DNA of 36,042 nt from a virus. Below the pieces are notes generated by a model. The model searched no databases. It saw only the letters and a list, made by a program, of their open reading frames with translations, and was not told the origin of the DNA. Positions 7,694 through 24,721 of the stretch are shown piece by piece (position 1 is the stretch's first letter; every line of letters begins with the position of its first letter). Location of the stretch: UHGV virus genome UHGV-0206538; one strand, 5' to 3'. A program made the translations under genes and the position numbers.

Positions 7694-9094
7694 TTATAAA
7701 AAATCTACAGCTTTAATCGTATTGTCATCATTTAGGTAAATCTCCTGTATCGTGGATCTCCAAAAAGAACGCTTGTTTTCTGGAGACAGCGAATCATACA
7801 TCTGGCGAAAGTCAGTTTTTAATAATTCTTCTACATAATGCAGGTTTCTCGTCTCTTCTTCCTCGCAAAAAGCAGCAGAAGCGGAATATTCTCTCTCCAA
7901 TCTTTGGTACTCCTTATCGTAGTAATCGTAAGAGATCCGCCCCTTTTGAAATAACAAATTTAATCGTTCCATTTCTTTTCTAAGCTTTTTCGGATCTTTC
8001 GCTTTCTTTTGCTTTTTTAACTCTTCGCTGATCTGGTTGGTGCGAACCTTATACTTTTCGTACTCTCTTTCAAGATTTTCGAGCAGATATTTTTCGATAA
8101 GGTTCTGGCTTACCCTATGCCTATACGTGCAAATATGGTCTTTAAGCGCTCTATTGCAACGGTAGTAGCAGTATGTTCTTTTTTCTCCGGTTTTACGGTT
8201 GATAATTGATGAGCATCCGGTGCCAACTAATTTCTGTCCACATACAGGACAGCGCATCAAACCTGTAAATAGGTATACTCTGCCAGATGGTGTGCTTTTT
8301 ATATTTCTTTTCGAGATAGTTTGCATCTCATTCCATTCTTTTTCTGACAGGTAGGCGGGGCAATAAGGATACCCTCTGTACGTCCCCTTGTAAAATTCGC
8401 TCGATAACATTGTTCTCAACATTCCATAGCTAAAATCAATACCATAGACCTCTTGCATGTACCGGACAGCGCCCTTCTTGGAGTTATGATTTCTAAAATA
8501 TTCAAAAAAATCTTCCACCATGTGTTCTGTTTCCGAATCTTTAACCATGCATTTCTTCCCGTCCACGACACCTGTTTTATATCCAAAAGGCATATTTGCA
8601 TCTCCGAATATTAACTTCCTCTGTCTTATAGATGCTTCATTCACAAATTTAATTCGCTCGGATGTGGTGTCTACTTCATTTTGCCCGATCGACAGCACTA
8701 CATTTAACTGCAATCGTCCGTCTCTGGTCTCCATGTTTATTCCTGGCTCGGAAACCGAGATCCAACGCACTCCATGCTCATCAAGTACATCCTGGACCTT
8801 ATAGAAATCTGACAGATTTCGAAACCATCTGTCGAGTCTCCAGAAAATTATCACATCAATTTTATCCCTTTTTACGTCCTCTACAAGAGCGTGTATGGCT
8901 TTTCTTTTCTTCAATTCTTTTCTGGCAGTCTTTCCCTCGTCCGCATAGACACCTACTATAGACATATTGTTGTCTGTTGCGTATTGCTCCAGGCATTCTT
9001 TCTGTGCTTGCAGAGACTTGCCATGTACGCTCTGCTCAAATGTGGAGACGCGGATGTATATGGCACACCGCAGTATTTTTTCTGGCATTTGCAT
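7694..9094 (-). CDS. Large serine recombinase (phage integrase). True start is ATG at 9094 (RBS AAGGAGAG); the 534-aa track ORF carries a spurious N-terminal extension.
   Basis: N-terminal resolvase domain (…AIYIRVSTFEQ…, catalytic Ser in context). Recombinase domain. Zinc-ribbon CPVCGQKL…CYYRC. C-terminal coiled coil. Confidence 0.9.
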   Translation of the reverse strand: MQMPEKILRCAIYIRVSTFEQSVHGKSLQAQKECLEQYATDNNMSIVGVYADEGKTARKELKKRKAIHALVEDVKRDKIDVIIFWRLDRWFRNLSDFYKVQDVLDEHGVRWISVSEPGINMETRDGRLQLNVVLSIGQNEVDTTSERIKFVNEASIRQRKLIFGDANMPFGYKTGVVDGKKCMVKDSETEHMVEDFFEYFRNHNSKKGAVRYMQEVYGIDFSYGMLRTMLSSEFYKGTYRGYPYCPAYLSEKEWNEMQTISKRNIKSTPSGRVYLFTGLMRCPVCGQKLVGTGCSSIINRKTGEKRTYCYYRCNRALKDHICTYRHRVSQNLIEKYLLENLEREYEKYKVRTNQISEELKKQKKAKDPKKLRKEMERLNLLFQKGRISYDYYDKEYQRLEREYSASAAFCEEEETRNLHYVEELLKTDFRQMYDSLSPENKRSFWRSTIQEIYLNDDNTIKAVDFL

Positions 9095-9263
9095 CACTCT
9101 CCTTTTGTAAAATATATTTAAAATTGGTACAAAAATAACAGCCAGCGCAAAACATATGTTCCGCTTGCGTGACTGCCCCGAAGATGATACAATATTCGTG
9201 GATTTCAATCGCATATCTTCGGATATGTATACCGTCTCTGTTGGCGCAGGGGCGGTTTTTATT

Positions 9264-10295
9264 TTATTGTGGTGGATGGCAAATGCCGCACGGTTCATAA
9301 ACTCCGCGTACCTCAGACAGATGTTTTTCTATCTTAGATTTCAAAGTTCTGCATCCAGCACTATGATACTTTGCCCCAGTGTTTGTTATATACACGATAG
9401 GATCATCTTGGCTTTGCTGTGCAGCCTGCTCTTGTGCTGCTTGCGCTGCAGCTTGCTCTTGTGCAATCCTTTCTTGTTCAGCAGCCGCTGCCGCAGCCTG
9501 TTCTTGCTCAATACGCACCTGTTCAGCTGCTTGAGCTTCCTGTTCCAACCTAATCCGTTCTTCTTCCTCGGCTTTTATTCTCGCTTCTTCTTCCGGATCT
9601 ATAACGGTAATAGTTTTCGCACTGCTTTTAACTTCTCCATTCGCCGTAAAAAATAGTGATGCATTCCCAGAACCCGTAAATGTAATGACGGCTTTTCCGT
9701 CCTTATATTCGAGATCTGCGATATTATTTTCGGATAATTCCAAACTTTCGATTTTTGCGTCCGACGGGCTTGGAGTAATTTTTACCTCCGTTACATCTCC
9801 GATATTAAATTCTTCTTTCCCCCACTCTGCAGATATAGAGTTCAATTCAGATGGAGATCCAAGCCATATAAAGATAATTAGAGATGTTGCAAACACAATC
9901 GAGCATATCACAGTATTCCTGATCCTGTATGGCCGGAATTTTTTGGATACAACACAGTATATCAATACCGGTATGGCTGGTATCCATAAAAAAGAATACA
10001 CTACAAGTGCAATAGAGAGCATTATCAGCAAGGCAATAACACTAAGACATCCACCACCACTTTTATTCGATGCTTTACTCATTGTTTTCCCCTTGTTTTC
10101 TTTAGTTTTTCCGTTTTTGGTTTCTGTGTAATACAGTCCGCTCCCTGGAATTCCAAAGCTTTTTGTCCGTTTTCCGTCAGAATTAACAGTGTAGTGTATT
10201 CCTTTTCCGCCAAACGTGAAGCTATGGCTATTCTTGTTAAGATTAAACTTTATACCGGGAGCAATTTTAAAACTTTTTCTAAAACGAAATCCCAT
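9264..10295 (-). CDS. DUF4236-domain membrane protein with an extracytoplasmic beta-rich region, an Ala/Gln/Glu-rich coiled coil and a C-terminal Cys motif (…GAKYHSAGCRTL…EPCGICHP)
   Basis: N-terminus MGFRFRKSFKIAPGIKFNLNKNS…FGGKG matches DUF4236. Two to three TM helices. Low-complexity DNA repeats at 9420-9560. Confidence 0.6.
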   Translation of the reverse strand: MGFRFRKSFKIAPGIKFNLNKNSHSFTFGGKGIHYTVNSDGKRTKSFGIPGSGLYYTETKNGKTKENKGKTMSKASNKSGGGCLSVIALLIMLSIALVVYSFLWIPAIPVLIYCVVSKKFRPYRIRNTVICSIVFATSLIIFIWLGSPSELNSISAEWGKEEFNIGDVTEVKITPSPSDAKIESLELSENNIADLEYKDGKAVITFTGSGNASLFFTANGEVKSSAKTITVIDPEEEARIKAEEEERIRLEQEAQAAEQVRIEQEQAAAAAAEQERIAQEQAAAQAAQEQAAQQSQDDPIVYITNTGAKYHSAGCRTLKSKIEKHLSEVRGVYEPCGICHPPQ

Positions 10296-10428
10296 TCCTT
10301 TCTTAATTCACCTTCTTCTTCTCTCCTGTACTTTTCCCACAATTTATATATAAACGCCGAAGCGGTTATATCATTACCATTATTTACCTGTAGTTTCCAG
10401 TTTTGGAATATACTACAATAATTACATT

Positions 10429-10626
10429 ATGAAGATACTACTCGATAAGATCATGCACGATAAAAACCTATCTACTCGGCAAGTATCCATTGCAACTGGA
10501 ATATCAAAATCAACGATTAACCGCATTGCAAATGGTAAAATATCGCCGACAGCTGACACGCTGGAATTGCTTGCCAAGGACTTAAAAGTCCGAATTTCCG
10601 ACCTTATCGACTCTCCATATCAATAA
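10429..10626 (+). CDS. XRE-family helix-turn-helix transcriptional regulator (65 aa)
   Basis: …LSTRQVSIATGISKSTINRIANGKISPTADTLELLAKDL… is a classic HTH_3. No Shine-Dalgarno is visible, so possibly leaderless. Confidence 0.65.
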   Translation: MKILLDKIMHDKNLSTRQVSIATGISKSTINRIANGKISPTADTLELLAKDLKVRISDLIDSPYQ

Positions 10627-10731
10627 GTGTCCCACATCTGGGACGATTGTCCATTTTCGCGTAAGTTTCCCGAATTTTAACTGTTTATTTAATAGAGGGC
10701 AAAAACATTGCCACAAAATAACAGAACAAAT

Positions 10732-10793
10732 GTTCGAACAAAATATTGATTTTTGTTCCCTGAGATAGTATTATATGTTCAGGGATTTCGAAC
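10732..10793 (+). promoter_or_regulatory. Promoter TTGATT-17-TATTAT flanked by GTTCGAAC (10732-10739) and TTCGAAC (10787-10793) operator half-sites, plus a TCCCTGA/TCAGGGA inverted repeat around the -10
   Basis: Read directly; same TTCGAA motif family as in the repressor/cro intergenic region. Confidence 0.45.
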
Positions 10794-10823
10794 AAGTGTT
10801 TTTGCAGTTAGGGGGATCGCGAA

Positions 10824-10925
10824 ATGGATTACAAAAACAAGATTATCGAACTTATCAACGGTATAAGTAATACTGCAAAATTAGAGTATCTTTATTACGT
10901 GATAAGATCGTTTCTTAAAGGGTAG
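10824..10925 (+). CDS. Small ORF (33 aa, MDYKNKIIELINGISNTAKLEYLYYVIRSFLKG)
   Basis: RBS AGGGGGAT; driven by the operator-flanked promoter; convergent with the repressor gene. Confidence 0.3.
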   Translation: MDYKNKIIELINGISNTAKLEYLYYVIRSFLKG

Positions 10926-10945
10926 GCTATTGCTTACCCTTTTTA
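10916..10945. terminator. Bidirectional hairpin AAAGGGTA-ggctattgct-TACCCTTT between convergent genes
   Basis: Perfect 8-bp stem; T-run on + side (TTTT) and on - side. Confidence 0.45.
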
Positions 10946-11271
10946 GAAAGCGATTCGATAAGATGCTTTATGGCTTCCTTGTCGGATTCATCTAAAGAAT
11001 AGTAACAAGATATCATATTGATAATCTCTTGATCTTTCATTATTCGTCCAACTAATGTTCCACTTTCTTCTCTGGAATAATTTCCAAAAAAGTCGTTTGG
11101 TATCATTTCCAGCACTTCACATAATCTTTCTATAGTATCAGCGTCTGGTTTATTCTTATTATTTTCCCAATCGCTTATTGAATTATGTTTTGCACCTATT
11201 AAATTCGCAAGTTCTTTTTGAGTCATGTTTTTCTTTTTTCTGTATTCCTTTATTTTCTCTCCTAAACTCAT
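10927..11271 (-). CDS. CI-like phage repressor (XRE HTH plus a C-terminal oligomerisation/sensor domain). Start moved to ATG 11271 (RBS AAGGAGGA).
   Basis: MSLGEKIKEYRKKKNMTQKELANLIGAKHNSISDWENNKNKP… HTH_3. Divergent from the cro-like gene, with operators in between. Confidence 0.8.
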   Translation of the reverse strand: MSLGEKIKEYRKKKNMTQKELANLIGAKHNSISDWENNKNKPDADTIERLCEVLEMIPNDFFGNYSREESGTLVGRIMKDQEIINMISCYYSLDESDKEAIKHLIESLSKKGKQ

Positions 11272-11289
11272 TATGCTTCCTCCTTGCAT

Positions 11290-11430
11290 TTTCTATATTA
11301 ACACATAGAAATTATATTTTCAACAAAAAAAGTTCGAAAAAATCGAAATTTTAGTGTTGACATTCGAATATTTCGAAGTTATAATGAAATTAGTTCGAAC
11401 GAATCGAAAAATGAAAGAGGTGATTACGGA
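11290..11430. promoter_or_regulatory. Genetic-switch region. Rightward promoter TTGACA(11357-11362)-17-TATAAT(11380-11385). A leftward TTGAAA-17-TAATAT candidate. At least six TTCGAA / GTTCGAAC / TCGAA operator copies (11333, 11343, 11363, 11372, 11393, 11404).
   Basis: Read directly. Two TTCGAA copies lie in the spacer of the rightward promoter, the classic operator/promoter overlap. Confidence 0.75.
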
Positions 11431-11634
11431 ATGTGTGTAGGTGAAAGAATTAAAGCTTACATGGACGAAAAGGGAATTAAGCAGGTTTTTGTATCACGAA
11501 AAACAGGGATACCAAAAGAAAAACTTTGTTCATCATTAAATGGAAATAGGAAATTGCAATTTGAAGAATACGAGCTGATCTGTGGAGCGTTAGATGTAAA
11601 TACGGACAAGTTTATTAAACCGAAGAAATTGTAA
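11431..11634 (+). CDS. Cro-like XRE-family regulator (67 aa)
   Basis: HTH; RBS AAAGAGGTGA; first gene of the rightward early operon. Confidence 0.7.
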   Translation: MCVGERIKAYMDEKGIKQVFVSRKTGIPKEKLCSSLNGNRKLQFEEYELICGALDVNTDKFIKPKKL

Positions 11635-11645
11635 AGGAGAGCAAA

Positions 11646-12407
11646 ATGAACAATTTAACAGTATTTGAACAAAACGGTCAGCTACTCACCGACAGTAGAG
11701 AGGTAGCAATGATGGTAGGAAAAGACCATGCAAAACTCTTAAGAAATATAAGAGAGTATTGCAAACATTTGAACGAATCCAATTTTGGATTGGTTGATTT
11801 CTTCATCGAATCAGCTTACACGGATTCAAAGGGAGAAGTAAGACCATGTTACCTCTGCACAAAGAAAGGATGCGACATGATCGCCAACAAAATGACCGGA
11901 AAGAAAGGTGTCATTTTCACAGCTACATATATTGAAGCATTCGAGAAGATGAAAGACTTCATCGAAAAAGGGACGCAGTACGTAGGCATTCCGTTAAAAG
12001 AACAGGTGGAATCACTGGAAGTAGTAGCAAGCATGCTGAGAATGAACGATGCAAGCAAGTTGCTGATGCTGAAAGGCTTCTACGATTCTTACCATATTCC
12101 GACAGAGTTCTTGCCGAATTATGAGTTTAACGGCAATAGGGCAATGAAGTCACTCACAGCACTGCTGAAAGAAAATAATCTCGGAATCAGTGCGGTGCAG
12201 TTCAATAAGAAACTTTTATCTGCCGGAATCTTGGAAGAAAAGGAACGCCAGTCAAGTAAGGGAAGAGTAAAGAAGTTTAAATCACTGACAGAGAAAGGTT
12301 TGAAATACGGTGAAAATGCAGTCAGTCCTCATAATCAGAAAGAAGTGCAGCCGTTGTATTACAGTGACACGTTTAATGAACTGTTTGATATGGTGATGAC
12401 TAACTAG
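11646..12407 (+). CDS. rha: Phage regulatory protein Rha (antirepressor-type)
   Basis: MNNLTVFEQNGQLLTDSREVAMMVGKDHAKLLRNIREY… matches the Rha N-terminal domain. Confidence 0.8.
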   Translation: MNNLTVFEQNGQLLTDSREVAMMVGKDHAKLLRNIREYCKHLNESNFGLVDFFIESAYTDSKGEVRPCYLCTKKGCDMIANKMTGKKGVIFTATYIEAFEKMKDFIEKGTQYVGIPLKEQVESLEVVASMLRMNDASKLLMLKGFYDSYHIPTEFLPNYEFNGNRAMKSLTALLKENNLGISAVQFNKKLLSAGILEEKERQSSKGRVKKFKSLTEKGLKYGENAVSPHNQKEVQPLYYSDTFNELFDMVMTN

Positions 12408-24288: not shown

Positions 24289-24487
24289 TTGTGATGTAAG
24301 GTTTGCGGCTTACCAGCTGGGGGTTGCTGTAGGGAGTGCACACCGGCTTTACATCACAAATGGTACCAAAACGCAGATATCCGCAGATCTGCAAAACAAA
24401 CAAAAATAGATTCAGCAATCTATATTTAGTGTAATCAGCGTACCCGAGTGCGGATAGGGTAAAGGATGTCAATAAAAGGCATCCTAC

Positions 24488-24560
24488 GGGTGTATAGCTC
24501 AGTTGGCAGAGCAATCGGCTGTTAACCGATGTGTCGCAGGTTCGAGTCCTGCTATACCCG
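24488..24560 (+). tRNA. tRNA-Asn (anticodon GTT), 73 nt, CCA not encoded
   Basis: Manual fold: acceptor GGGTGTA/TATACCC, D-stem GCTC/GAGC, anticodon stem ATCGG/CCGAT with loop CTGTTAA, T-stem GCAGG/CCTGC with loop TTCGAGT, discriminator G. Confidence 0.85.
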
Positions 24561-24721
24561 TTGTGGACTACTGCAAGGTTCCTCCTTTTTCTTATAAATT
24601 TTGATTGTGTATTTGGTTATTTTGGTTTTTGTTGGCATTTGCAATCCTTTCGAGCAGTAGTCCTAAATTCTTGGCATCCAGAGATGGGTGCTTTTATTAT
24701 GTTTTAAAGGTGGTGAGTCGG

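Follow-up and report, generated by a model that had tools for sequence, protein, structure and literature searches.

LexA-controlled antirepressors and small antagonists of repressor C-terminal domains are both already known. The antirepressors Tum of coliphage 186 and those of Gifsy and Fels-2 in Salmonella are products of LexA-repressed genes that inactivate a non-cleavable repressor, coupling induction to the SOS response. Among described systems, the nearest to the locus presented here is AimX-AimC-AimL of the Bacillus arbitrium phages phi106, Wbeta, and BMBtp14, in which AimX, an experimentally demonstrated antirepressor of 29 amino acids (aa), binds the C-terminal domain of AimC and blocks its oligomerisation (Kabel et al., bioRxiv 10.1101/2025.11.23.689978). 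We compare these systems with the immunity region of the UHGV virus genome UHGV-0206538 (36,042 nucleotides [nt]; "the window" denotes this whole stretch of DNA), where an open reading frame (ORF) of 33 aa, hereafter ORF33, converges on the gene of a 114-aa helix-turn-helix (HTH) repressor. Two promoters in this region probably answer to two regulators: one promoter belongs to a repressor/Cro switch, and the other would be held by LexA and drive ORF33 as an antirepressor.

The likeness of ORF33 and its repressor to AimX and AimC is one of layout and described mechanism. As with AimC, the repressor is a short HTH protein (80–140 aa) with a putative helical C-terminal oligomerisation domain and no autocleavage domain; as with AimL, a cro-like gene lies next to the repressor gene and is divergent from it, as in the window; as with AimX, the 3' end of the repressor gene is met by a tiny ORF (29–80 aa) on the opposite strand, immediately preceded in the phi106 family by a LexA site; and in both cases the sequences of the small ORF co-vary with those of the repressor. 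The window differs from the arbitrium phages in that no AimR/AimP pair lies upstream and in that its boxes flank an autonomous sigma-70-type promoter, DNA damage being the only input that would be expected. The hosts differ as well, Lachnospiraceae (class Clostridia) for the window and Bacillus for the arbitrium phages, and very few close homologues of AimC and AimL are reported outside arbitrium systems (bioRxiv 10.1101/2025.11.23.689978).

The SinR/SinI pair of Bacillus subtilis offers a further possible likeness, with an HTH repressor of ~111 aa, a C-terminal helical oligomerisation domain, and a small helical antagonist; SinI, however, resembles the SinR C-terminal domain in sequence, whereas ORF33 does not resemble that of its repressor, SinI is not LexA-controlled, and the pair forms a chromosomal developmental switch rather than a phage one. 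Tum and the Gifsy and Fels-2 antirepressors share with the proposed system a LexA-controlled antirepressor set against a non-cleavable repressor, but differ in being larger and of unrelated sequence, in having their genes at a distance from the immunity region, and in a LexA box of the type CTGT-N8-ACAG. The repressor/cro operator array of the window is an ordinary member of a well-known kind: phages lambda, P22, and 434 likewise have divergent repressor and cro genes and three spaced palindromic operators over the rightward promoter, adjoining the repressor promoter. In the window, by contrast, the repressor carries no S24/RecA-dependent autocleavage domain, the operators are 15 bp long with 5-bp half-sites, and induction is presumably indirect. 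The second promoter seems to feed the SOS signal into the switch, via an unannotated family of mini-proteins that is widespread in Lachnospiraceae prophages.

Ruminococcus (Mediterraneibacter) gnavus belongs, with other Lachnospiraceae, to the abundant bacteria of the gut and has, like them, been linked to inflammatory bowel disease. DNA-damaging drugs induce the prophages of these bacteria even though the repressors lack a cleavage domain, and the published R. gnavus phage papers mention neither LexA nor operators. The path proposed here leads from a LexA box through a 33-aa protein to the C-terminal domain of a repressor; most GenBank records leave its key gene unannotated, and the circuit would offer handles for obtaining non-inducible or heteroimmune phages. 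The window itself is a complete or near-complete genome of a temperate siphovirus of R. gnavus. Over 1.4 kb around the switch region it is 97% identical to phage RG-TP1 (36,030 bp, against 36,042 bp for the window) and ~95% identical to phages phiRg507T2_3, phiRgIBDN1, phiRM10, and phiRg519T2.

The ORF33 promoter and its LexA-type boxes

ORF33 (10824–10925, + strand) is preceded by the promoter TTGATT-17-TATTAT at 10746–10774 (+), as an earlier interpretation of the locus from its letters alone (the sequence-only reading) had recognised. Two boxes of the Firmicute LexA (Cheo) type flank this promoter and, judged by their sequence, are putative LexA-binding sites. Box 1, aGAACAAATGTTCg (10723–10736; core GAACAAATGTTC, 10724–10735), ends 10 nt before the -35; it is an exact GAAC-N4-GTTC and agrees with CGAAC-N4-GTTCG at 13 of 14 positions. 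Box 2, cGAACAAGTGTTTt (10789–10802; core GAACAAGTGTTT, 10790–10801), begins 15 nt beyond the -10, at about +8 to +20 of the ORF33 transcript, and is an exact GAAC-N4-GTTT. The LexA box consensus of Firmicutes is GAAC-N4-GTTC (PMC4951493), with GAAC-N4-GTTT also occurring in Clostridia. In surface plasmon resonance assays LexA bound the lexA and recA operators of C. difficile, GAACAAATGTTT (PMC4234289), whose core is the same as that of box 1, GAACAAATGTT.

The TTCGAA copies seen at the second promoter are accounted for as the ends of these two boxes. The right end of box 1 together with AAC makes GTTCGAAC; the left end of box 2 together with TT makes TTCGAAC, the half-site which had been noticed at 10787–10793. 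Loci with the second promoter were retrieved with a probe from which the TTCGAA copies had been omitted (32 viral loci; 36 related loci including four GenBank phages). Across 37 loci the -35, the -10, and both TTCGAA blocks are essentially invariant (the -10 is changed in two loci and the -35 in two, to TTGCTT), and the spacer and upstream flank vary. The form GAAC-N4-GTTC of box 1 is retained in 37 of 37 loci, two of them with one change in the 4-nt spacer; box 2 reads GAACAAGTGTTT or GAACATGTGTTT in relatives, the box form being kept.

Boxes also precede ORF33 homologues elsewhere. Among the fetched loci, 52 of the 59 distinct regions upstream of these homologues contain a box within 150 nt (background, 0.31 boxes per kb), as do 78 of 95 distinct upstream regions among the listed matches of an IMG/VR coding-pattern scan (see below). 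At least four unrelated promoter sequences are represented among the 52 boxed regions, with the box directly after the -10 (e.g., TGGTATAATAGCAAAAACGAACTAATGTTCGG, GGGTATAATGAAATAAAAGAGAACAAATGTTCTT); in the other promoter classes the box starts 3–13 nt after the -10. At chance matches to the pattern within long ORFs of unrelated phyla, in species-representative genomes, no box was found (0 of 32).

The proposal in the sequence-only reading that one repressor probably controls both promoters fails in both directions, both comparative tests being negative. Among loci that share the ORF33 promoter, the repressor DNA-binding domain is of five types, every one of which has an operator of its own, and ORF33 and the repressor C-terminal domain are each of three types; the promoter is essentially invariant across the five DNA-binding types, and none of their own operators lies inside it. 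Where the recognition helix is the same as in the window and the small ORF has another promoter, 41 distinct upstream regions contain neither TTCGAA (0/41) nor the operator (0/41), and 37 of these 41 contain a GAAC-N4-GTTY box. In the window, TTCGAA is present at the second promoter as two single hexamers, without a partner half-site at operator spacing. A weak operator candidate at 10778–10792 (TTCAGGGATTTCGAA) was rejected: it has two mismatches in 10 core positions, and it was not counted as evidence because such sites occur at chance frequency (33 versus 22 expected). For the reading of motifs in general, the case is a caution that a hexamer common to two promoters can stem from two unrelated binding sites.

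An inverted repeat, TCCCTGA (10757–10763) and TCAGGGA (10779–10785), is placed around the ORF33 -10 and had been put forward as a possible binding site for the 65-aa XRE protein encoded at 10429–10626 (+). The dyad is indeed present but is not a conserved element, and its assignment to the XRE protein is not supported by the relatives: the left arm reads CCACTGA, CGCCTGA, CCAATGA, or TCACCGA, with no compensating change, also in loci where the XRE gene is 90–95% identical, and the promoter is intact in phages that lack this gene. By rough estimate, the chance expectation for an inverted repeat of 7 bp within 100 bp is ~10%. The dyad was likewise rejected as a conserved operator or RNA structure, given the variable arms and a 5' leader fold that is not unusual (z = -1.3). 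A separate palindrome, TTCCAGTTTTGGAA (10395–10408), overlaps the putative promoter of the XRE gene (-10-like TATACT, 10409–10414) and may be the operator of the XRE protein itself. The stretch from the integrase to the immunity module, to which the XRE gene belongs, is variable, and phages of the phiRM10 type lack this gene.

The ORF33 family and its pairing with the repressor

ORF33 (MDYKNKIIELINGISNTAKLEYLYYVIRSFLKG) is predicted to form a single helix; a Shine-Dalgarno sequence, AGGGGGA (10810–10816), stands 7 nt before its ATG, and it ends 1 nt short of the stop codon of the repressor gene (10927–11271, - strand), which runs towards it. Between the two genes an inverted repeat forms a hairpin, AAAGGGTAGGC/GCTTACCCTTT, followed by T residues (10917–10947; RNA fold -25.3 kcal/mol, z = -6.5), which is probably a terminator. 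ORF33 is 97% conserved in the published R. gnavus phages MT980837, MT980838, MT980840, and MT980841 and annotated in none of these; it is annotated in RG-TP1 only, as a hypothetical protein.

Homologues of ORF33 (MDYKK-IIE…, 31–39 aa) amount to 22 distinct sequences in the fetched loci. A scan of IMG/VR with the coding pattern MDYKK-x-II[EK], which is blind to the boxes, returned at least 120 loci. Among the matches listed, 115 were usable and all are short ORFs (114 of 31–39 aa, one truncated at 19 aa; 47 distinct sequences); likewise among the matches listed, 99 of the 107 family members on viral contigs face an ORF of 90 or more codons that converges on the small ORF and ends within ~80 nt of it. 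Pooled over all fetched loci, 104 of 105 distinct convergent ORFs have an HTH domain. The family peptides keep their hydrophobic pattern across dozens of divergent sequences. In species-representative genomes the true members come from Lachnospiraceae and related Clostridia (Blautia, Acetatifactor, Mediterraneibacter, Coprococcus).

Two departures from this layout were observed. The subfamily MDYKKKIIELLEKADHDQTYTIFRFVCSFLGIK, found in genomes of Blautia and other Lachnospiraceae, has neither a convergent HTH repressor nor a LexA box, so that the family has at least one other genomic context. In one branch of the repressors ~50% identical to that of the window (locus L012, 2840–3913) the small ORF is replaced by an 81-aa ORF together with a KilAC-type antirepressor gene (251 aa) that converges on the repressor, and the stretch covered showed no LexA box.

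No Pfam hit was obtained with ORF33, and its PHROG hits were weak and confined to families of unknown function; an exhaustive search of representative proteins gave four hits, a search with little power at 33 aa. The possibility that ORF33 is a SinI-like mimic of the repressor C-terminal domain was dropped as a sequence claim, as hhalign found no similarity. The repressor has a single Pfam domain, HTH_3 (8.9e-15); with HTH families only in the Pfam scan, no S24 autocleavage domain was found. Its AlphaFold2 model (predicted local distance difference test score 85) consists of a five-helix HTH domain (residues 3–61), a disordered linker (62–72), and C-terminal helices (73–113). The HTH domain matches those of P22 C2 and 434-type repressors; over the full length, the fold closest to the model is that of SinR from the SinR/SinI complex (1b0n_A), which Foldseek aligns over 115 columns but with a template modelling score of 0.52–0.58 and a root-mean-square deviation of 8 Å.

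The two convergent genes are paired at the level of domains. Each cluster of repressor C-terminal domains occurs with exactly one cluster of small ORFs, and one small-ORF cluster occurs with up to four clusters of DNA-binding domains; one type of C-terminal domain is fused to three different DNA-binding domains. Recombination joints are found at the ORF33 start codon (10824) and at the junction of the repressor domains (~11060–11100), which indicates that ORF33 and the repressor C-terminal domain move together as a unit of ~250 bp. The pairing is suggestive only, and fits either a specific protein–protein contact or tight physical linkage.

Operators of the repressor/cro switch and immunity types

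Checked by position, the motifs listed in the sequence-only reading are all in place, and both the architecture and the comparative conservation support its lambda-like divergent switch, in which repeated operators cover a strong promoter that points rightward. This early promoter (PR-like, +), TTGACA-17-TATAAT at 11357–11385, serves cro and the Rha-type gene; its hexamers (TTGACA, 11357–11362; TATAAT, 11380–11385) match the consensus at 12 of 12 positions. TTCGAA copies lie in its spacer at 11363 and 11372, as had been described; of the four further copies said to flank it, two are TTCGAA (11333 and 11394) but the other two read ATCGAA (11342 and 11403). The palindrome GTTCGAAC is found at 11393–11400 and, as the end of box 1, at 10732–10739.

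The repeat unit of the switch is a 15-bp palindrome, TTCGA-N5-TCGAA, present three times with start-to-start spacings of 30 and 31 bp. Operator O1, TTCGAAAAAATCGAA (11333–11347), matches it exactly and sits upstream of a candidate leftward repressor promoter, 9 nt from its -35; O2, TTCGAATATTTCGAA (11363–11377), is a perfect palindrome and occupies the 17-nt spacer of the rightward promoter; O3, TTCGAACGAATCGAA (11394–11408), stands just 3' of the -10, at roughly +2 to +16 of the rightward transcript. The candidate leftward promoter (PRM-like, -), TTGAAA-17-TAATAT with TG at 11295–11323, is a prediction from a consensus scan (9 of 12 positions). A Shine-Dalgarno sequence, AAGGAGGAA, precedes the repressor ATG at 11271.

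The proposed check on the frequency of TTCGAA gave a divided answer. Over the whole window the hexamer is not enriched (13 copies versus 14.5 expected), but it is strongly clustered, with four copies in 100 bp and six in 700 bp, densities reached by 0 of 2000 dinucleotide shuffles. Exact copies of TTCGA-N5-TCGAA number three in 36 kb, all in 11333–11408, versus 0.02 expected from shuffles; GTTCGAAC is not significantly enriched over the window (two copies, one per promoter). For TTCGAA, GTTCGAAC, and GAAC-N4-GTTY alike, the signal is one of clustering, position, and conservation, not of enrichment over the window.

Phages in IMG/VR whose repressor is ~50% identical to that of the window but has the same recognition helix, AKHNS[IV]SDWE, carry the palindrome at the same positions. 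Sites equivalent to O1, O2, and O3 are all present in this repressor family, where the O2 position reads TTCGAAAAGTTCGAA; it reads TTCAATTTGATTGAA in the heteroimmune phage phiRg507T2_2, in which even the hexamers of the rightward promoter are conserved. O3 is conserved in close relatives. When sites are pooled from 35 distinct intergenic regions of phages that share this recognition helix, their consensus is TTCGA-N5-TCGAA; the sixth base is not conserved and is often T, so the palindromic hexamer TTCGAA is not the recognition unit. On this comparative sequence evidence we take the three palindromes of the repressor/cro region to be real operators.

Between the same flanks as in the window (type A), phiRg507T2_2 (type B) has a different repressor and cro, and its operator TTCAA-N5-TTGAA, at the same promoter positions, differs from that of type A by one base per half-site. 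Three further DNA-binding types of repressor go with GAGTT-N4-AACTC, TTGTT-N4-AACAA, and GCTT-N3-AAGC; every heteroimmune type (B, C1, C2, and C3) is marked by a palindrome peculiar to it, in two to three copies in the repressor/cro region. Published spot tests agree with the operator distinction between A and B: the type-A lysogen phiRg507T2/3 blocks two type-A phages and not the type-B phage phiRg507T2/2 (PMC10072058, Table 2). In the same spot tests a type-B lysogen blocks phiRg507T2/3 but not phiRg519T2 (PMC10072058), a one-way cross-resistance that is not accounted for by repressor specificity alone.

Proposed circuit, alternatives, and neighbouring genes

In the lysogen, the repressor would occupy O1–O3 and LexA the two boxes, so that the ORF33 promoter would be off. 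With O2 in the spacer and O3 just after the promoter, repressor at these two sites would shut the rightward promoter and cro; O1 would place it next to its own candidate promoter, and the spacing of three helical turns would suit cooperative binding through the helical C-terminal domain. As the repressor has no autocleavage domain, DNA damage must be sensed indirectly. Upon damage LexA would be cleaved and the ORF33 promoter would fire; the resulting 33-aa helical protein would inactivate the repressor, most likely via its C-terminal oligomerisation domain, and so free the rightward promoter. Sequence and comparison establish the operators with their specificity class, the LexA-type boxes with their conservation and their tie to the small-ORF family, and the domains of the repressor; binding by LexA, antirepressor activity of ORF33, and contact with the repressor C-terminal domain are what we infer for this locus.

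Other regulators of the second promoter were considered. A CI-like repressor that recognises TTCGAA(C) at both promoters, and represses the 33-aa ORF along with cro, would explain why the hexamer is found at both, why a single stretch of 700 bp holds six of the 13 copies present in 36 kb, and why GTTCGAAC occurs exactly twice in the window, once per promoter; this is nonetheless very improbable, as the operator unit is TTCGA-N5-TCGAA and each copy at the second promoter stands without a partner half-site, as the second promoter is unchanged in phages with four other repressor DNA-binding domains and operators, and as TTCGAA is missing (0/41) from the other small-ORF promoters that go with the same recognition helix. 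Slighter still is the chance that the GAAC-N4-GTTC boxes are bound not by host LexA but by a phage-encoded protein such as the 65-aa XRE protein. The XRE gene does lie 100 bp upstream in the same orientation, and many loci with the ORF33 promoter carry it too; the promoter and both boxes are nevertheless intact in phiRM10, phiRg507T2_2, and phiRg507T2_3, all of which lack the gene, the box precedes the small ORF in unrelated promoter contexts of other phage groups, it equals the Firmicute LexA consensus, and the putative promoter of the XRE gene has its different palindrome, TTCCAGTTTTGGAA.

If the boxes are LexA sites, ORF33 might still not be an antirepressor; SOS-induced convergent transcription could instead lower repressor expression through antisense or transcriptional interference, or the peptide could have another SOS role (cell-division inhibitor, toxin, excision aid). 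The tail-to-tail arrangement with stops 1 nt apart would suit interference, some family members occur in genomes without an adjacent repressor, and ORF33 has no homology to known antirepressors. We regard this alternative as unlikely, if appreciably less so than the two above, since a strong hairpin separates the two genes, since the peptide is conserved as a protein, with a common hydrophobic pattern in dozens of divergent sequences, since ORF33 types pair one-to-one with C-terminal domain types, and since in the analogous Bacillus system the active agent is the peptide and not an antisense RNA (bioRxiv 10.1101/2025.11.23.689978). The antirepressor reading leads because the relative RG-TP1, not this exact sequence, was recovered by mitomycin C treatment (PMC13435783) though its repressor has no autocleavage domain, and because AimX provides a precedent.

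Several observations weigh against a LexA-gated antirepressor. By simple count GAAC-N4-GTTY is not over-represented in the window (5 versus 2.2 expected). In cultured and metagenome-assembled genomes a strict box accompanies only ~9 of ~30 family members, and for several there is no convergent repressor, so that the family is not exclusive to the tail-to-tail layout. ORF33 shows no similarity to any annotated antirepressor family in Pfam or PHROG, and hhalign of the ORF33 family against the repressor C-terminal domains gave a probability of 0.9%. Distance-matrix (mirror-tree) correlation of ORF33 was r = 0.88 with the C-terminal domain versus 0.80 with the DNA-binding domain, which is not decisive; given this small difference and the alternative of physical linkage, the co-variation is no more than suggestive.

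A broader form of the antirepressor reading, on which we stand evenly divided, is that ORF33 founds a large, unannotated family of 31–39-aa helical proteins (MDYKK-IIE…), LexA-gated mini-antirepressors each matched to the variable C-terminal oligomerisation domain of its own short CI-like repressor. Such proteins, common in Lachnospiraceae prophages, would form a counterpart of AimX/AimC that works without arbitrium, and DNA damage would act mainly through them to induce these abundant prophages of the human gut.

The genes around the switch are as follows: a serine integrase (7694–9298, -) and a DUF4236 membrane protein (9264–10295, -) on the left, then the XRE gene, ORF33, and the repressor gene at the coordinates given above; on the right, a Cro-like HTH protein of 67 aa (11431–11634, +; Pfam HTH_26, 7.7e-5; PHROG transcriptional regulators), a Rha-type regulator (11646–12407, +), and, farther along, a gene of the AntA/KilAC antirepressor type. 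A third LexA-type box, GAACATATGTTT (9150–9161, -), lies ~55–65 nt 5' of the likely start of the serine integrase, an ATG near 9091–9097 preceded by AAAGGAGAG. It is retained in eight related loci; one variant, GAACATCAGTTC, has an altered spacer and right arm and keeps the box form. With a box of this type upstream whose form is kept in relatives, expression of the integrase may also be SOS-controlled. The phage genome further contains a tRNA-Asn (GTT) gene (24487–24561).

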